DNA of 64,000 nucleotides from a virus. The stretch's first letter is position 1. Every line of letters starts with the position of its first letter. The notes below the pieces were generated by a model. It worked only from the letters and a program-made list of their open reading frames with translations. It searched no databases and was not told where the DNA came from. A program made the translations under genes and the position numbers. Positions 17,465-26,038 of this stretch are shown here, piece by piece. The DNA lies in the IMG/VR virus record IMGVR_UViG_3300023174_000050, positions 96,001-160,000 of that record; one strand, written 5' to 3'.

Positions 17465-17743
17465 ATGAATGATTCTAAAAAAGAAGTCATGCTTATTCTT
17501 CAAGAAGAATGCGCAGAAGTGACACAGGCAATCTCAAAATGTTTACGTTTTGGAATAGATGGTGAATATAATGGTGCTACTAATCGAGAAAGATTGACTG
17601 AGGAAATCGGTGATCTTATAGCAATGATTGAACTATGCTACGATAACGACATTGTAGATTACTTACAAGTCAAAGAAGCACAGCATAGAAAATTTGATAA
17701 ATTAAAAAAATGGTCTACAATATATGAAACTGAAAATATCTGA
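17465..17743 (+). CDS. MazG-like nucleotide pyrophosphohydrolase
   Basis: QEECAEVTQAISK and EEIGDL motifs. Confidence 0.8.
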   Translation: MNDSKKEVMLILQEECAEVTQAISKCLRFGIDGEYNGATNRERLTEEIGDLIAMIELCYDNDIVDYLQVKEAQHRKFDKLKKWSTIYETENI

Positions 17744-18569
17744 ATTATTTTATAGTATACAAGGTGAGGGTCGCTTTATGGGCGTCCCTTCTATCTTTTT
17801 AAGAACCTTTGGTTGCAATTTTACTTGCGGTGGTTTTGGAATGCCAAAGGGACAAATGAGTGAAGAAAGGTCAAAAATAAATGCAACATCTTTTAAGAAT
17901 TATCGGGATCTTCCTTTGGTCGATACTGGGTGCGATAGCTACGCTAGTTGGGATGTCAATTTTAAGCATCTTAGTCCCGTTATGGACATTCAAAGTATCG
18001 TTACAAGAATATTAGCAGAGTTACCGCACAAAGAATGGAAAGATGAGCATCTAGTAATTACTGGGGGCGAACCTTTATTAGGATGGCAAAAAGCATATCC
18101 CGATTTATTGGAATATAAAGGAATGCGAGATCTTGCCGAGCTTACTTTTGAAACTAATGGTACTCAAATGTTAAGTGCAGATTTTGAGGAATATTTATTT
18201 CAAGATTGGACTAGATTTGGTCGCAGATATAGTAATCTAACATTTTCGGTTTCTCCTAAATTATCTGTATCTGGGGAGAAATGGGAAGACGCAATTAAAC
18301 CAGATGTTGTGTCTCAATATCAAAGTGTAGGATATACCTATTTGAAATTTGTAGTAGCAACAAAAGAAGATGCAGAAGAAGCAGAGCAAGCAGTAAATGA
18401 ATATCGTAAAAAAGGTTTTGGCGGTCCTGTTTATCTTATGCCTCTTGGTGGCACCGAGCAGTTGTACTCTCTTAATAATCGGGCGGTGGCAGAATTGGCA
18501 TTGCGAAAAGGTTGGAGGTATTCCGATAGATTACAGATCCCATTGTTTAAGAATGCCTGGGGAACATAA
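17724..18569 (+). CDS. queE: 7-carboxy-7-deazaguanine synthase QueE (radical SAM)
   Basis: SELFYSIQGEG, FLRTFGCNFTC, ITGGEP, FETNGT, SVSPKL. Confidence 0.93.
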   Translation: MKLKISELFYSIQGEGRFMGVPSIFLRTFGCNFTCGGFGMPKGQMSEERSKINATSFKNYRDLPLVDTGCDSYASWDVNFKHLSPVMDIQSIVTRILAELPHKEWKDEHLVITGGEPLLGWQKAYPDLLEYKGMRDLAELTFETNGTQMLSADFEEYLFQDWTRFGRRYSNLTFSVSPKLSVSGEKWEDAIKPDVVSQYQSVGYTYLKFVVATKEDAEEAEQAVNEYRKKGFGGPVYLMPLGGTEQLYSLNNRAVAELALRKGWRYSDRLQIPLFKNAWGT

Positions 18570-18633: not shown

Positions 18634-19314
18634 ATGTCATACAACAAAACAAAAACTGACCCTGAACTTGGTCTAAAGGTTCACGAACATCTTGTCAAAA
18701 TGGGTGTTGAAACGCCATATGAAGATAATGATATAGATCGCAAAATTAAAATTGAACTTATAGAAAAAGCTTTTAGTACAATTATGCGAACACTCGGATT
18801 GAATTTATCTGATGATAGTTTAATGGAAACTCCTAATCGTGTTGCTAAGATGTATGTTAACGAAATCTTTTGGGGTTTAGATTACGATGCTTTTCCAAAA
18901 TGTACAACCGTCGATAACAAGATGAAGTATAATGAAATGGTATGCGAGCGTAATATTAATGTACAATCCAATTGCGAGCATCACTTCGTAGTTATTGATG
19001 GGCTTGCTACTGTGGCATATGTTCCTAAAGATAAAGTTTTAGGTCTTTCTAAAATTAATCGTATTGTAGAATATTTTAGTAAGCGTCCTCAGATTCAGGA
19101 AAGATTGACTGAACAAGTATTTCATACATTACAATATATTCTTGATACAGAGGATGTTGCTGTTATGATTGATGCACAACACTATTGCGTTAAGAGCCGA
19201 GGAGTTGAAGATACTGGTAGTTCTACAGTTACAGTAAGATTAGGCGGTGGATTTAAAAATGATCCTGCTGCTAGAAATGAATTTTTAAGTATTGCAAGAA
19301 TGGGTAAAAAATGA
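18634..19314 (+). CDS. folE: GTP cyclohydrolase I FolE
   Basis: ETPNRVAKM, CEHH, GLSKINRIV, RPQIQERLT, CVKSRG. Confidence 0.97.
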   Translation: MSYNKTKTDPELGLKVHEHLVKMGVETPYEDNDIDRKIKIELIEKAFSTIMRTLGLNLSDDSLMETPNRVAKMYVNEIFWGLDYDAFPKCTTVDNKMKYNEMVCERNINVQSNCEHHFVVIDGLATVAYVPKDKVLGLSKINRIVEYFSKRPQIQERLTEQVFHTLQYILDTEDVAVMIDAQHYCVKSRGVEDTGSSTVTVRLGGGFKNDPAARNEFLSIARMGKK

Positions 19315-19820: not shown

Positions 19821-21187
19821 TGAAAACTTATCATAAGCGTATTGCCTTTTGTTTAAGTGATCAACATACTATTCCTCATGGTGGTCTAGGGCAATTTGCC
19901 AAATCCTTTATTGAGAATTTTGTTCCGCTTGGATATAAAGTAGATATTATATCTGATAAACCTACATCCAATATTGACTTCAAAGCGTATCTAGAAAGTC
20001 AAGGTGCAAATTTTGTTTATCCTTCGGATGTTCGACCATATAGTACACATACCAAAACATTCATGTTTGAGGATTCCTATAACTTTGAAAAGATGAGTAA
20101 TTTTAGAGATGCTATGATGAAAGCTCTAAACACAAATCTATATGATATTATTATTTGTAATACATTAGAATCCTTTCCGGGGATTTATGCTTTAAACATT
20201 CACAAATCAATTCAAGTTATTTACTATACTCACAATGAAAGTATGGTGTTCTTAGATGATAGAACATGGAAGAATGAATTTACAGAATCATTTAATGAAT
20301 TGTTCAATGCATTAATGAAGGTCAAAGGTATAACCATTGGTACACAAACTCTAAGAAATAATTACGAACTTCAAGCACATGGTATTACTAACTCATATGA
20401 ACTTCCTATTCCAATGACTGAAAAAAGTTTATTGGTCGAACATAATAAACCAAGAGAGGGTGTTTTATGGATTGGTCGTTGGGAACCAAGAAAGAATCCC
20501 GAGGAGTTTATTCGTGTAATTAAAGAAACAGGATTGCCTGCAAAAGTAATTACTAATACTAATGGTGCCAAAAAATTTGAAGAAGCCCTAAAAGCAATAG
20601 GTGCTAAATATGAAATAAGGATAGGTGTATATGGTCAGGAAAAAGTTGACTTTATAACAAGTGCTCGAGTTGCATATAATCCTGCAATTAGAGAAAGTTT
20701 TGGATTAGCATTTTATGAATGTATGGGTCATTTACCTACTGTTGCTATAACAGGTATGTCCTGGTTAGATAACTTTGGCAGACACTGGTATTTTTGTGAG
20801 GATAAGAAAAATATCCCATCTTTAATAACTAAACTATATGAAGATTTTGAAAAGTCTGAAGTTTGGTATAGTAAAAATCCATTACATAATATTATTACAC
20901 AACATGAAATGGGTATACAAGCATGGATAGATATTTTTAATTCGTTCAAACCGGTCGAATCAAATTCTATCAGAGCAACGATTAATGAATATTCGGAAAT
21001 TGAATATTCCGAGTTTATTAAAATACTAAATAGGAAAGATTTGTCTATAGATGATGTTAAATCTGTATTGACAAATAAGTACAAATATAATATAATTTAT
21101 ACTGATACGAGCACATACCTATCAAAAGATCCAAACTTTGTACCTAAAGAAAAAGAAACAACTAATTTAGAAAGTCTATTCGCATGA
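19820..21187 (+). CDS. GT-B (GT4-like) glycosyltransferase with C-terminal extension
   Basis: PHGGLGQF, IGRWEPRKN, ESFGLAFYE (E-x7-E); ends LESLFA. Confidence 0.85.
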   Translation: MKTYHKRIAFCLSDQHTIPHGGLGQFAKSFIENFVPLGYKVDIISDKPTSNIDFKAYLESQGANFVYPSDVRPYSTHTKTFMFEDSYNFEKMSNFRDAMMKALNTNLYDIIICNTLESFPGIYALNIHKSIQVIYYTHNESMVFLDDRTWKNEFTESFNELFNALMKVKGITIGTQTLRNNYELQAHGITNSYELPIPMTEKSLLVEHNKPREGVLWIGRWEPRKNPEEFIRVIKETGLPAKVITNTNGAKKFEEALKAIGAKYEIRIGVYGQEKVDFITSARVAYNPAIRESFGLAFYECMGHLPTVAITGMSWLDNFGRHWYFCEDKKNIPSLITKLYEDFEKSEVWYSKNPLHNIITQHEMGIQAWIDIFNSFKPVESNSIRATINEYSEIEYSEFIKILNRKDLSIDDVKSVLTNKYKYNIIYTDTSTYLSKDPNFVPKEKETTNLESLFA

Positions 21188-22473
21188 GCAAAATTTTAGA
21201 ATATGTTATATCTGGTCCTGCATATTTGCGATTAGGTGCAGAACAATGTAATGACCCCGAAACCTTGCAGATGATTCTAGACTTAATTAATAAGACAGTA
21301 CATAAAAAGAACAACCATGAATTTTCTTTATTATATAATGGTTTTACAGAAAAGAATTTCGGTAAAAAATTACAAAAATTTAGACCTGCTATTAAAAATA
21401 TTCATGCTGACTCTGGTGGTTTGCAGATTATTACGCGCGGTCTCCAAAATACGCCTGAGACTCGTAATAAGGTTTATGAGAATCAAGGTGGTTTTGCTGA
21501 TATAGGAATGGCATTTGATGAGATTCCCGTTAAGTCTACTTCTGCAAGTGGCACATCTGCAAAGATTGATACCAAGCGTAGATATGTTGATACGGAAAAT
21601 TTTGAGTCGTATGCGAGAGCAACAGGCAAGAATGTTAAAGATCAAATTTTAAAATTTGATTCTATGAAAAGTAATTGTAGACCCTTTGCTATTTTACAGG
21701 GTTCAGGTGCAGACACTTATGCCAAATGGGCAGAATGTATGTTGGATGAGATTCCAAAAGAACTACATTCTCGCATTGGCGGTGTGGCTATGGGATCAGC
21801 TGCGTTAGGTATGGGGCCACTTGAAGATGTTAAACGAGCATTTTATGTTAATGCTGTTCCATTTGAGAGACCATTTCATTTGCACGTATTGGGAGTTGGG
21901 GCACTTAAACGTATTTTACCTTATCTATTATTTAGTCAAACTGGTCTATATGAAGGCGTAGATATTTCGTATGACTCTACTACACATTCTATGTCATTAG
22001 ATAATGGATTATTTTATTTCTCACACTGCAAGAAAAATAGTCCAAGTGATTATGGCGGTTCTTCTGTTAAGATGGGAAGAGAATATTCTAACATCTATAG
22101 AACAGTAACTGAAGAAATTAATAACGTATGCGGAACAGACTATACTCCAGAACAATATCATAAACTAATGAATATTGCAGTAGGCGAGTATATTGAAAAG
22201 GGTGGAAAATTTATAGATGTGATGAAAGCGCGTCTATCTTTTATTCTAACTAATGTTCATAATTTTACAATGGATGTTTCTGAACTAATGAATTCTAAGG
22301 AAAACTTCTTAAGATTCTGCAGAGATAAAAATTGTGAGAATGAATATTCTACATTATTTGACGTAAAAACCACAGAGGATTTTCTATACTGGGAAAAGCA
22401 TGTTGGTAAATTTATGGATTCGGAGCCAGTCAATTCTGTAGCTCCATCATCACTAGAGGACTTATTTGCATGA
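21184..22473 (+). CDS. dpdA: DpdA-like TGT-family DNA 7-deazaguanine transglycosylase
   Basis: HADSGGLQ, AFDEIP, ILQG, HLHVLGVG, SYDSTTH TGT-barrel motifs; located in the que cluster; ends LEDLFA. Confidence 0.82.
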   Translation: MSKILEYVISGPAYLRLGAEQCNDPETLQMILDLINKTVHKKNNHEFSLLYNGFTEKNFGKKLQKFRPAIKNIHADSGGLQIITRGLQNTPETRNKVYENQGGFADIGMAFDEIPVKSTSASGTSAKIDTKRRYVDTENFESYARATGKNVKDQILKFDSMKSNCRPFAILQGSGADTYAKWAECMLDEIPKELHSRIGGVAMGSAALGMGPLEDVKRAFYVNAVPFERPFHLHVLGVGALKRILPYLLFSQTGLYEGVDISYDSTTHSMSLDNGLFYFSHCKKNSPSDYGGSSVKMGREYSNIYRTVTEEINNVCGTDYTPEQYHKLMNIAVGEYIEKGGKFIDVMKARLSFILTNVHNFTMDVSELMNSKENFLRFCRDKNCENEYSTLFDVKTTEDFLYWEKHVGKFMDSEPVNSVAPSSLEDLFA

Positions 22474-22862
22474 GTATGTTTACATTAAATAAAAGTTATA
22501 TCTGGGTAACCTTTCGTAAAGAAGGTATCCATAAGTATCCTGCTGCCGCAACTGATCCAAAGTTGGCTACAGGCGATTGGTTGGATGTTTCCTTTTTAGG
22601 TACGCCTCATAGGCATATTTTTCATTTTAAAGTTGAAATGCAAGTGTTTCATGATAACAGAGATGTGGAATTTATTCAGGCAAAGCGTATTATGGAACGA
22701 TGGTATTCTGATGGCACATTACAATTAGATCATAAATCATGCGAAATGATGGCAAGAGAATTGTATGCCAAATGTCTTGAGCAATGGCCCTCAAGATGTT
22801 ATACTATAGAAGTATCAGAAGATGGTGAGAATGGTTGTAGACTTGTTTTTGAGGAAAGATAA
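22470..22862 (+). CDS. T-fold QueD paralogue, DpdL-like (putative CDG decarboxylase)
   Basis: LGTPHRHIF (LxxxHRHxF), SCEM, VSEDGENG; directly after dpdA. Confidence 0.65.
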   Translation: MSMFTLNKSYIWVTFRKEGIHKYPAAATDPKLATGDWLDVSFLGTPHRHIFHFKVEMQVFHDNRDVEFIQAKRIMERWYSDGTLQLDHKSCEMMARELYAKCLEQWPSRCYTIEVSEDGENGCRLVFEER

Positions 22863-24043
22863 TGGGTAAATTATATTATATGGGTTTAGAGCCCTATGAA
22901 GGTAGATACACACTACAGTTGCAGCAATGGAACGAGGCAGCATTTAAGCGTCGTGGTATTGATTATGAAATTATTCATGGTGATACTTTAGATGATACTA
23001 AAGCTATTGTTACAGGACAAGTTCTTGATGCACATGGTCGCAGTTATTATTCTTTAACACAGATGGCGAATCTTGTTAAGAAAATGAAGGCAGGAGAAAT
23101 TACTTGGGAGGATAAAATTTTCTTTGAAGATATGTTTACTCCCGGTATTGAGGCATTGCCATATATTATGGATCAGGTTGAATGGCAATATAAACCTCAG
23201 GTATATGTTAGATGCCTTGCACAATCTATTGATCCCGACGATTTTCTCCATGTACATGGAATGAATAGATGGATGTCTTTATATGAGAAGATGACTATTG
23301 AGTTTGCAACTGTTCTTGCTTCCAATGAAGAAATGGTTGCCCATATGAAAATAGCAGGATGGGAAGTTCCAATTTATAATATTTCAGGATTGGCATTTGA
23401 CAAAAATGAAGTTCAAAGTCGTGTTGCAGAAATTAAACCATTCATTAATCGTAAAAAGCGAGTGGTGTTTGCTGCAAGATTTGATCAAGAAAAACAACCC
23501 GGTTTCTTTATGGATTTGGTAGAAGAATATGGTCAAGAACATAGAGATGTGGAATTTGCTGTTTTATCGGGTGGACCTTTACGTAGCAATGCGGAGCATT
23601 ATTTGGAAAGAGCAAGAGAATTAGAAAAGACTGCTAATTTTAAAATATACGAAAATCTTAAAAAGAATGAATACTATGAATTGCTTGCCGATTCTAGAGT
23701 ATTATTTAATTGTGCTTTGCAGGATTGGGTAAGTAATACAGCATCGGAAGCAGATTCACTGGGTACAAATTGTTTATATCCTGCGTATCGTTCTTTCCCC
23801 GAGACATTTGCTAATGATAATGAATGTTTATATATTCCTTGGTCTATGGAAGATGCTAAAGAAAAATTAGATAAACTATTAGTTACTCCTAGAAAAAATA
23901 TGGGTAAGTTATCAGACTGGACATCTGGTACTATTGATAGATGTCTAGATATTATGTTTCCGGATGCAGAGTTTGATTTAAGCTATCAGTGGTATAGAGG
24001 TGCAAATGATTATAGAAACTACACAAAAGAATCCAAATACTAA
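22862..24043 (+). CDS. GT-B glycosyltransferase
   Basis: FAARFDQEKQP, YYELLADSRVLFNCALQDWVSNTASEA (D-x7-E), LYPAYRSFPE. Confidence 0.8.
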   Translation: MGKLYYMGLEPYEGRYTLQLQQWNEAAFKRRGIDYEIIHGDTLDDTKAIVTGQVLDAHGRSYYSLTQMANLVKKMKAGEITWEDKIFFEDMFTPGIEALPYIMDQVEWQYKPQVYVRCLAQSIDPDDFLHVHGMNRWMSLYEKMTIEFATVLASNEEMVAHMKIAGWEVPIYNISGLAFDKNEVQSRVAEIKPFINRKKRVVFAARFDQEKQPGFFMDLVEEYGQEHRDVEFAVLSGGPLRSNAEHYLERARELEKTANFKIYENLKKNEYYELLADSRVLFNCALQDWVSNTASEADSLGTNCLYPAYRSFPETFANDNECLYIPWSMEDAKEKLDKLLVTPRKNMGKLSDWTSGTIDRCLDIMFPDAEFDLSYQWYRGANDYRNYTKESKY

Positions 24044-25046
24044 AGTTATCGTAACAGGTGCCGCCGGTTATATCGGTGGCGCTATTTGTATCGAACTTAA
24101 AAAACAGGGTTATACTGTTATTGGAGTTGATCGAAGAAAGCTACCAAAGCATCTTGAAAAGTATGTAGATACTTTTGTCAATGAATGTTTTACTCACCCG
24201 TTTTCCTTAGAACATCTTGAGAGTAATCCCATTGCAGTTATACATTGCGCAGGAACAAGTTTAGTTGGTCCAAGTATAGAAAATCCTTCGGAATATTATG
24301 ATAACAATGTAGCTAAAACTCTAAAGTATTTAGATTATATTCGTCGTTGGTCATCTATTACCAAATTTATTTTTAGTAGTAGCGCATCTGTTTATGGATC
24401 ACCTGATACCGCAGTTATATTTGAAGGAACAAGAACAGAACCCATTTCTCCATATGGTGAATCTAAATTAATGACAGAGAAAATGTTACATTGGTTTGAA
24501 AAGGCATATGGATTAAATTATGTGTCGTTTAGATACTTCAATGCCTGTGGTGCAGTTGAAGGTGGGCTACATGGACAAGAACCAGGGGCAACGCATATCC
24601 TTGCTAGATTATTTGAAGCTGCAATGTCAAAAGAAGATTTTACTCTGAATGGTGTAAATTTTCCTACACCTGATGGAACGTGTGTCAGAGATTATATTCA
24701 TGTTACTGATATTGCCAAAGCACATATCTTGGCTATTGAGGAAAATATCAAAGGGATATATAATATAGGATCAATAAAAGGTTATTCTAATTTAGAAATT
24801 TTTACGAAGGTTGAAAATTATCTAATAGATGAAGAGTTATTACATGATGGTATTATAATGCATGTCGAAAAAGCACGCGAAGGTGATCCCGCAATGTTAG
24901 TTGCAAATTCTGATAGATTACAAAAAGAATCTTCGTGGAAACCTGAAAGAAATATTGATACAATTATAGATGATCTACATGCATGGTATCTTTCGCCTGC
25001 ATATGAGAAACTACAAAAGAGGTCTCCGGCATTCACCCCTCTCTAA
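24006..25046 (+). CDS. galE: UDP-glucose 4-epimerase-like extended SDR
   Basis: TGAAGYIG, FSSSASVYG, YGESK, FRYFNACG, DGTCVRDYIHV. Confidence 0.9.
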   Translation: MIIETTQKNPNTKVIVTGAAGYIGGAICIELKKQGYTVIGVDRRKLPKHLEKYVDTFVNECFTHPFSLEHLESNPIAVIHCAGTSLVGPSIENPSEYYDNNVAKTLKYLDYIRRWSSITKFIFSSSASVYGSPDTAVIFEGTRTEPISPYGESKLMTEKMLHWFEKAYGLNYVSFRYFNACGAVEGGLHGQEPGATHILARLFEAAMSKEDFTLNGVNFPTPDGTCVRDYIHVTDIAKAHILAIEENIKGIYNIGSIKGYSNLEIFTKVENYLIDEELLHDGIIMHVEKAREGDPAMLVANSDRLQKESSWKPERNIDTIIDDLHAWYLSPAYEKLQKRSPAFTPL

Positions 25047-25086
25047 ATATTCTGCATGTCATCAAACTTACTCAAGGAGGCAAGAG
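25018..25086 (+). ncRNA. Candidate preQ1-I-like pseudoknot riboswitch upstream of queD
   Basis: P1 AGAGG/CCTCT, loop GGCAT pairs with downstream ATGTC, and alternative GTCTCC/GGAGGC pairing hides the SD. Confidence 0.5.
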
Positions 25087-25563
25087 ATGACAAAATTTAT
25101 CTCAACAAAAACTTATAAACAAATAGGACCCGTAGCATATAGACAATGGAGAGCAGATAGTCACTGCAATCTAATTCATGGTTATGCTTTATCTTTTCAT
25201 TTCGAATTCGAATGTGATACTTTAGATGCTCGCAACTGGTGTATGGACTTTGGAGGATTAAAAGATCTAAAACATAATCTAGAAGATTGGTTCGACCATA
25301 CATTACTTGTAGCAGAAGATGATCCTAAACGTGAAGAATTACTACACTTAGGTAAAATTGGTCTTGCTAAAATTACAGAAGTTGAAAAGACAGGATGTGA
25401 AGGCATTGCAGATTTTTTATATGAATATGTAAATACAATTTATTTACCAATGTATGGTAAAACAGAAGCTGAAAGAATCTGGTGCTGCAAGGTTGAAGTA
25501 CGAGAAACAGATTCTAATATGGCAATGCGCGTAGGTCACAGGGAAGATAATGAATTCCAATGA
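25087..25563 (+). CDS. queD: 6-carboxy-tetrahydropterin synthase QueD
   Basis: SHCNLIHGY, MDFGGLK, FDHTLLV, TGCEGIA; GGAGG SD. Confidence 0.9.
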   Translation: MTKFISTKTYKQIGPVAYRQWRADSHCNLIHGYALSFHFEFECDTLDARNWCMDFGGLKDLKHNLEDWFDHTLLVAEDDPKREELLHLGKIGLAKITEVEKTGCEGIADFLYEYVNTIYLPMYGKTEAERIWCCKVEVRETDSNMAMRVGHREDNEFQ

Positions 25564-26038
25564 TAAATCTAATTTACTAAAAGGTCGCAATAGTGTCGAT
25601 GCTAATCTTAGCGGAACCGTTGTTGCATTTTTTAATCGTAATATAAGTGAATATCCTACAGAACAGGGTGCATTTTTTGCACCCGTTGTTGTAGAAAAAG
25701 AAAAAGATATTTCACTCAATATTGCTAAACAACACGCCAAGCAAGAATATGATAGAATCATGGAAATGGTTCGTGTTCTAGAAGAACAGGCAAAACAATT
25801 AGTTAGTAGATTAGACGCAACTGAAGTAGTCCATAAAACAACTTTTTCCTTTACTCCTGTGCACGGCAGGGTATATCATATTTACCACAATGACCACAAT
25901 CAAACAAATCAAATGAGTTTAATTGGTCCGACCGAATGGTGTGCCGGTCCAGGAGAACATTTAAAATTTGTAGTATCTGTTCGTAAAAAAGGTGATTCAA
26001 CTTGGGAATATATAGATGAAGATAGCGTTAGTAACTGA
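25550..26038 (+). CDS. Hypothetical protein (DUF2452-like)
   Basis: YPTEQGA, AKQEYDRIME, FTPVHGRVYHIY; family call from memory. Confidence 0.55.
   Translation: MNSNDKSNLLKGRNSVDANLSGTVVAFFNRNISEYPTEQGAFFAPVVVEKEKDISLNIAKQHAKQEYDRIMEMVRVLEEQAKQLVSRLDATEVVHKTTFSFTPVHGRVYHIYHNDHNQTNQMSLIGPTEWCAGPGEHLKFVVSVRKKGDSTWEYIDEDSVSN

Follow-up and report, generated by a model that had tools for sequence, protein, structure and literature searches.

A covarying pseudoknot in the leaders of phage QueD-type genes is a candidate translational riboswitch

The preQ1-I riboswitches (RF00522) comprise types I-III, with examples in B. subtilis queC, T. tengcongensis and E. coli yhhQ. They are compact H-type pseudoknots with a P1 helix of 5-6 bp, an A-rich L3 that lies in the groove of P1 and a specificity C before the P1 3' strand (PMC10622847). 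Binding of the ligand buries the Shine-Dalgarno (SD) sequence and leads to repression, as has been found for all preQ1 riboswitches measured (PMC11625349). Here we analyse a leader RNA of comparable shape that lies upstream of a QueD-like gene in a viral DNA stretch of 64,000 nucleotides (the window), corresponding to positions 96,001 to 160,000 of IMG/VR record IMGVR_UViG_3300023174_000050. The source was the whole record of about 190 kb, and coordinates are those of the 64-kb window, plus strand. An earlier note, made from the letters of the window without database searches, had proposed a phage-borne variant of the preQ1-I riboswitch at this place. Our comparison of homologous leaders suggests that the element is probably a phage-specific cis-regulatory RNA controlling the translation of QueD-type genes, most likely a riboswitch.

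A protein-based search yielded 351 viral relatives of the QueD-like gene, 80 loci of which were kept, and comparison of the 100 nt upstream in these QueD-selected loci revealed a shared motif with obvious compensatory changes (39 distinct copies). A degenerate DNA pattern matched at least 120 stretches in IMG/VR, which were added to give an alignment of 134 distinct copies. The parts of the element in the window are as follows.

25018..25022, plus strand: P1 5' strand AGAGG, pairing with 25038-42
25023..25027, plus strand: L1 UCUCC, with C25024 and U25025 conserved and the rest measuring 4 to about 14 nt in relatives (39- and 134-copy alignments)
25028..25032, plus strand: P2a 5' strand GGCAU, pairing with 25056-60, with compensatory changes at 5/5 pairs
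25033, plus strand: U25033, facing C25055 as a U·C mismatch within P2; T in 39/39 copies, the C in at least 90%
25034..25035, plus strand: P2b 5' strand CA; C-G in 130/134 and A-U in 129/134 copies
25036..25037, plus strand: L2, two nt, with C25037 invariant in the 134-copy alignment and directly 5' of the P1 3' strand
25038..25042, plus strand: P1 3' strand CCUCU, pairing with 25018-22
25043..25052, plus strand: L3 CUAAAUAUUC, with A25045, A25047, A25049, U25051 and C25052 conserved; it holds the galE stop TAA (25044-46)
25053..25054, plus strand: P2b 3' strand UG, pairing with 25034-35
25055, plus strand: C25055, facing U25033 and conserved in the 39- and 134-copy alignments
25056..25060, plus strand: P2a 3' strand AUGUC, pairing with GGCAU (one G-U) and common to the sequestor hairpin
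25057..25092, plus strand: sequestor hairpin of the minimum free energy (MFE) fold, UGUCAUC 25057-63 with GAUGACA 25086-92, including the AUG
25074..25080, plus strand: Shine-Dalgarno AAGGAGG, read from the sequence
25087..25563, plus strand: the regulated gene, QueD-like (PTPS family; Pfam PTPS 59.6 bits, phrog_2389 QueD-like E 9e-40)

The aptamer spans 25018-25060, that is 43 nt, and contains about 10 conserved unpaired bases. The P1 strands of the earlier note (25018-22 and 25038-42) are complementary and covary strongly in the 134 distinct phage copies. The P2 that it gave, 25028-32 with 25056-60, pairs and covaries as well and proved too short, two further pairs (C25034-G25054 and A25035-U25053) lying past the U25033·C25055 mismatch; P2 amounts in total to 5+2 pairs, and P1 and P2 together to 12. 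The idea of a phage-borne H-type pseudoknot with an A-containing linker in the queD leader is borne out by the covariation and by the conserved A's in L3. The linker between the P1 3' strand and the P2a 3' strand (25043-25055) reads CUAAAUAUUCUGC. L1 starts with N-C-U and varies in length by insertions among relatives; in L3, of about 10 nt, alternating A's, three of them conserved, are followed by a conserved UC. The leader alone does not fold better than shuffled sequence (MFE z = -0.89), so the significance of the fold comes solely from the comparison.

Among the 39 distinct copies, 95.4% of the P1/P2 cells pair and all five P2 pairs covary, and double-change cells number 73 compared with 24.9 in shuffles (0/500 reach the observed value). 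For the 134 distinct copies the corresponding figures are 92.5% pairing and 279 double changes vs 91.7 (0/500), with a covariation score of 0.427 vs 0.03-0.09 for slid partners; over both alignments together the slid-partner controls range from 0.03 to 0.13. The middle pair of P1 is C-G in 80, A-U in 39 and U-A in 15 of the 134 copies, and the second pair occurs in G-C, C-G and U-A variants. A second pattern run on IMG/VR, with TCCGC instead of TCTGC and the partner base left free, gave at least 78 distinct matches. The partner base is a G in 75 of the 78 distinct matches listed, the other three not folding as the motif, and the A-U pair of P2b has therefore switched to G-C in this second (TCG/TCCGC) clade. 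Conservation and covariation in homologues, on which the earlier note had staked its proposal, are both found: the motif is kept in hundreds of uncultured phages with compensating base changes. The P1 and P2 helices and their covariation are real.

The placement of the motif is equally strict. A covariance model built from the copies was run on the genome and on the 80 protein-selected loci. In the 190 kb genome it finds a single copy, at the queD leader (57.7 bits), and no second copy, for example at the folE leader. Exactly one match each was obtained in 59 of the 80 loci, which had been chosen by QueD protein similarity alone; all 59 have the sense orientation and immediately precede either the QueD-type gene or a short open reading frame (ORF) in front of it, and the model finds the motif nowhere else in the 453 kb of those loci. 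A PTPS-family ORF, with 32-92% identity to the window protein, lies directly downstream in 112 of the 119 pattern matches listed. Five of the remaining seven have a PTPS-family gene in the same operon, in second place after a gene for a cupin or a methyltransferase-like protein or after a 243-aa ORF; one of these is a divergent PTPS of 306 aa, and in one the PTPS-family gene lies beyond the range searched for downstream ORFs. The last two are a locus that ends before any ORF and a chance match without the motif fold. The motif-bearing operon of locus L175 runs on into QueE. A stricter pattern applied to 185,579 prokaryote species genomes gave four matches, all of them true copies followed by the same gene. 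These four copies lie, with the QueD-like gene, on short contigs (L209-L212, 4-8 kb) of metagenome-assembled genomes (MAGs) from Bacteroidetes, Crocinitomicaceae, Nitrospira and Chitinophagales bins; the contigs are probably phage DNA that ended up in MAG bins, or they hint at the hosts.

A T4-late-like TAAATA or a TATAAT occurs in the 30 nt preceding the motif in 90 of 152 distinct contexts, compared with about 1.5% of control windows, and its commonest distance from P1 is 5-9 nt. Only 17 of the 152 copies, that of the window among them, lie inside a long upstream ORF. The usual position of the motif is therefore the extreme 5' end of the mRNA. A frameshift stimulator was considered and dropped, most copies being intergenic behind promoter-like boxes.

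Between P2 and the start codon we found at least six sequence-unrelated types of expression platform. Common to all of them is a hairpin that starts within the P2 3' strand, taking up its final 2-4 bases, and in which the SD or the AUG is buried in the opposite arm.

UGUCAUC...GAUGRCA, the type of the window (25057-63 with 25086-92)
CCUAUG...CAUAGG(AG)
GUCAUCA...UGAUGAC
ACUCC...GGAGU
GUCAUUGUU...AACAAUGGC
CCUUAUU...AAUAAGG

In the window UGUC 25057-60 are the four bases common to the P2 3' strand and the 5' arm of the sequestor, whose inner pairs (25067-69 with 25082-84, and 25071-73 with 25077-79) take in, in the latter case, the GAG of the SD; the SD itself lies 14 nt past P2. The platforms were compared over 152 distinct leaders, with the opening of the ribosome binding site (RBS) calculated for positions -13 to +4 and the five 3' bases of P2 withheld to mimic the knot. 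Withholding them lowers the predicted opening cost from 8.3 to 4.3 kcal/mol, and 128 of the 152 leaders show a drop of 2 kcal/mol or more. The contribution of the native P2 3' strand is 4.05 kcal/mol, whereas strands taken from other copies contribute 2.04. Runs of at least six pairs between the P2 3' region and the RBS occur in 145 of 152 leaders, with a mean contiguous pairing of 6.47 bases vs 4.26 for shuffled strands.

Since knot and sequestor exclude each other, formation of the knot should free the ribosome site, and we infer from the pairing and from the energy model that a stabilised knot would turn translation on. This agrees with the ON-switching geometry suggested in the earlier note, the P2 3' strand overlapping the RBS sequestor in every platform type. 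The competing helix that the note had put forward (GUCUCC 25022-27 with GGAGGC 25076-81) is complementary here and is not conserved beyond chance: L1/SD pairing across the 152 leaders has a mean run of 4.72 vs 4.35 in composition-matched shuffles. The conserved competitor is the local hairpin 25057-63/25086-92 and not an L1/SD helix.

How closely this RNA is related to preQ1-I was examined with Rfam 15. At gathering thresholds no family matches the leader in the window or any of 20 diverse copies, and no preQ1 match at E<=10 was obtained on 24950-25150. Run on the whole genome, RF00522 does not list the leader and returns seven other places with at most 15.6 bits vs a gathering score of 39. 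The preQ1-I-like reading of the earlier note thus holds for the layout (a 5-bp P1 of AGNGG/CCNCU, a C before the P1 3' strand, an A-containing L3) and fails for family membership, its own check with Infernal and Rfam having come out negative; with the preQ1-I model silent at the leader, the motif resembles preQ1-I in shape and is not a member. Both are compact H-type pseudoknots of about 35-45 nt with a P1 of 5 bp, within the 5-6 bp of preQ1-I, that ends in G-C pairs, and its strands here (AGAGG/CCUCU) read as in B. subtilis queC. C25037 is invariant at the place of the specificity C, a position that is partly imposed by the search patterns, in both, L3 contains A's and has to pass across the minor groove of P1, and both act on translation of a gene of the 7-deazaguanine pathway. 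The motif differs in a P2 of seven pairs with a conserved U·C, whereas that of preQ1-I has 3-4 pairs, in an L3 of about 10 nt with alternating A's then UC, whereas preQ1-I has an A-rich L3 of about 6-8 nt, and in an L1 that starts N-C-U and tolerates insertions. Its P2 3' strand overlaps the anti-RBS strand and reads ON, whereas preQ1-I is OFF, and it is found in phages without QueC.

Other pseudoknotted aptamers that act on translation, namely preQ1-II, preQ1-III, SAM-II, SAM-V and guanidine-III, differ in size, loops and conserved bases, and none of them gave an Rfam match here; to our knowledge they all bury the SD on ligand binding. With the adenine (add) and other translational ON riboswitches the motif shares a ligand-stabilised pairing that withholds a strand from the RBS sequestor, whereas add has the three-way-junction purine fold, not a pseudoknot, and regulates other genes. 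Small self-cleaving ribozymes (pistol, twister etc.) and other pseudoknot families in Rfam were considered and set aside, as no Rfam model matches.

The genes around the element place it in a described type of pathway. The phiST/ACP17-type route comprises FolE, QueD, QueE, DpdL and DpdA3 (PMC10516641), and the window has FolE, QueE, QueD, a DpdL-like and a gp123-like protein and no QueC.

17724-18569, plus strand: QueE-like (profile matches)
18634-19314, plus strand: GTP cyclohydrolase I, FolE (profile matches)
21184-22473, plus strand: 429-aa protein, DpdA3 candidate (phrog_10773, no Pfam match; 33% identity over the full length to ACP17 gp123)
22470-22862, plus strand: DpdL-like T-fold protein, 130 aa (LGTPHRHIF; 56% identity to Acidovorax phage ACP17 gp125)
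24000..25046, plus strand: GalE-like epimerase (TIGR01179, 268 bits), its 3' end overlapping the aptamer

DpdL, the proposed CDG (7-carboxy-7-deazaguanine) decarboxylase, has the signature LxxxHRHxF (Hutinet et al. 2023, PMC10516641). The 429-aa protein is a candidate for a DpdA3-like enzyme through its identity to gp123 solely; no DpdA was detected with Pfam TGT in the genome or in 25 related records. The observation of the earlier note that no queC is seen extends to the whole 190 kb record. Two features set the window apart from the described pathway: two glycosyltransferases and GalE are interleaved, and the element itself has no counterpart, no RNA regulator being described for the pathway (PMC10516641) and ACP17 itself lacking the motif. 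The gene families were surveyed in 21 large records with the motif and 4 QueD-bearing records without it, a small sample in which many records are fragments.

FolE: 20/21 with the motif, 3/4 without
QueE-like (strong match): 19/21 with the motif, 2/4 without
DpdL-like: 19/21 with the motif, 1/4 without (20/25 records overall)
True QueC: 0/21 with the motif, 1/4 without
429-aa protein (phrog_10773): 4/21 with the motif, 0/4 without

Since FolE, QueE and DpdL are frequent and QueC is found in 0/21 of the motif-bearing records, the motif goes with the proposed route from CDG to 7-deazaguanine, and judged by their gene content these phages appear to make 7-deazaguanine for their DNA. As the phrog_10773 protein occurs in only 4/25 records, most motif-bearing jumbo phages are without a recognisable DpdA. 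Two complete jumbo phages (G001:308995-309234 and G002:71437-71634, the records behind L046 and L113) have ORFs of 311-323 aa that match the first ~75 positions of the QueC profile with 23-26 bits; these are PP-loop ATPases, not QueC proper. In some phages (L161:5084-5917, minus strand; L210:4731-5567) the QueD-type gene adjoins KdsA-like (IAGPCQIES) and FAD-oxidoreductase genes, not deazaguanine genes.

The QueD-like protein of the window lies under the NCBIfam QueD cut-off (39 vs 89 bits). Pseudomonas phage Iggy, whose QueD shares with it the signature RQWRA..SHCxLxHGY and 46% identity by tblastn (45% when aligned), is reported to make dPreQ0 (PMC10484667), and on the grounds of this homology we accept a QueD-type function. 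In both proteins CxxxHGY and RQWR take the places of the CxxxHGH and the His of E. coli-type QueD, and the zinc site of the phage enzymes may, from these residues, differ from that of canonical QueD. A PDB sequence search with the protein gave no match. Upstream, the queD frame remains open as far as an ATG at 24970 and overlaps the end of galE (24970-25086); this extension is probably unused, since the start at 25087, 6 nt past AAGGAGG, agrees with all homologues. Downstream, a DUF2452-family ORF (25550-26038) begins before the queD stop, with an overlap of 14 nt, and may be co-translated; other phages carry other genes here. The ORF contains a perfect 7-bp hairpin (GGGTGCA-TTTTT-TGCACCC, 25666-25684) that is terminator-like on both strands. 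The galE-like ORF ends with the stop TAA at 25044-46, its final 13 codons (EKLQKRSPAFTPL*) being encoded by the aptamer. The non-conserved-looking tail with which galE was said to run into the element agrees with the profile, the GalE match ending at residue 330 of 348. In the window the motif copy accordingly sits inside a polycistronic message and overlaps the galE stop, which is a minority arrangement.

The motif shows the generic features of a riboswitch: covarying helices with conserved unpaired bases, a 5' leader position in cis to one functional gene class, and interchangeable platforms whose pairing is mutually exclusive with the aptamer. According to the mechanism that we propose, a small ligand would dock at the P1/P2 junction, probably read by C25037, and stabilise the knot; the stabilised knot would withhold the P2 3' strand from the sequestor, and the ribosome site would be freed, so that the presence of the ligand would mean ON. 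The invariant C, which suggests a guanine-like reading face, and the ON logic favour a precursor or signal as ligand. An end-product OFF switch would be the textbook design, yet the wiring reads ON; for that reason a precursor or signal with a face of this kind, such as guanine, a compound derived from GTP, or H2NTP (dihydroneopterin triphosphate), the pterin substrate, may be ranked somewhat above the pathway end products CDG or 7-deazaguanine. Going further, we see about an even chance that the motif represents a new, phage-only riboswitch class, which would be the first for DNA hypermodification and the first ON-acting relative of the preQ1-I fold and would sense a guanine-faced metabolite. 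In phages that would replace G by 7-deazaguanine through the DpdL route, guanine from DpdA base exchange, H2NTP or 7-deazaguanine (CDG, DG) might time QueD synthesis. In the literature searched, whose coverage was incomplete, we found no description of a phage queD riboswitch.

Several points weigh against the riboswitch proposal. A number of the seemingly invariant bases (GG, CU, the C of L2, CC, the three A's and UCYGC) were demanded by the search patterns; they are present in 59/59 model matches of the protein-selected set, the model having been trained on pattern-selected copies. The sequences are related, and both the shuffle counts and the Wilcoxon p-value overstate independence. The nearest-neighbour energy model is unable to fold pseudoknots and mimics the knot by blocking bases. 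A P2 of seven pairs might need no ligand to fold, biosynthetic enzymes are not usually under an ON switch, and in the window the aptamer would be disturbed by ribosomes finishing galE, which must unwind P1 and stop in L3. The phages ACP17 (Acidovorax), BUDD and X1 (Xanthomonas) encode the closest cultured relatives of the QueD protein, and their whole genomes lack the motif. With blastn, the QueD region and two leader variants gave no copy in 50,697 GenBank phage records; among these records and the cultured relatives searched, no isolate phage carrying the motif was found.

The same evidence bears on the alternatives. In bacteria queD belongs to the preQ1 regulon, and an ordinary preQ1-I riboswitch of a divergent subtype, binding preQ1 or preQ0 and repressing queD, would share the H-type layout, the 5-bp P1, the C before the P1 3' strand and the A-containing L3. 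We regard this as very unlikely, given that RF00522 is silent at the leader at E<=10 and 20 diverse copies are without Rfam match, that P2 has seven pairs with the U·C and L3 about 10 nt, that the SD is neither in nor beside P2, the anti-RBS strand overlapping P2 instead, and that all measured preQ1 riboswitches repress (PMC11625349). QueC is moreover found in 0/21 motif records and not in this complete genome, and the carriers therefore make no preQ0 or preQ1 themselves. At the other extreme, pairing by chance and without function could appeal to the single-sequence fold, which is no better than shuffles (z = -0.89); it is refuted by the comparative data, namely hundreds of copies with compensatory changes at a strict position and on a strict strand, and deserves practically no credence.

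Two further explanations are each improbable in our view, though less so than an ordinary preQ1-I riboswitch. T4-like phages use RNA operators, and, like the pseudoknot in the leader of T4 gene 32, the motif could be a translational operator whose knot is stabilised or melted by a protein of the phage or of the host. A RegA-type repressor is encoded by ACP17, and covariation and platform logic would look alike for a protein ligand; however, the element is only 43 nt long, and its conserved junction and loop bases are of the kind expected for a small-molecule pocket. Among T4-like phages and jumbo phages of 300-400 kb, which differ in their other genes, it accompanies one and the same metabolic enzyme, and no always co-occurring partner gene was seen adjoining it. 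The other is a structure that needs no ligand, acting as a constitutive enhancer, as a 5' cap for mRNA stability, as a thermosensor or in coupling to the upstream gene. Conserved unpaired bases would be needless for a mere stability element, and the conserved overlap with the RBS sequestor implies that the RNA can adopt two alternative states. With no more than 17 of 152 contexts located in an upstream ORF, coupling is not the general role, even if the motif of the window overlaps the galE stop. What does speak for this explanation is that in most transcripts the element is located at the very 5' end, a place at which mRNA is protected by stable structures, and that P1 and P2 have 12 pairs.

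The combination of the motif with FolE, QueD, QueE and DpdL and without QueC may serve to mark phages whose genomes are of the 7-deazaguanine kind (dDG-type). Should a ligand of the proposed riboswitch be discovered, its identity may clarify the still unproven DpdL step, and the motif would be a compact (~43 nt) natural ON switch on a preQ1-I-like scaffold, with which it could be studied how small pseudoknots change specificity and regulatory sign. It would then constitute a new riboswitch class that lives in viruses and not in cells, and would mean that phages sense a metabolite in order to pace how they make a non-canonical DNA base.

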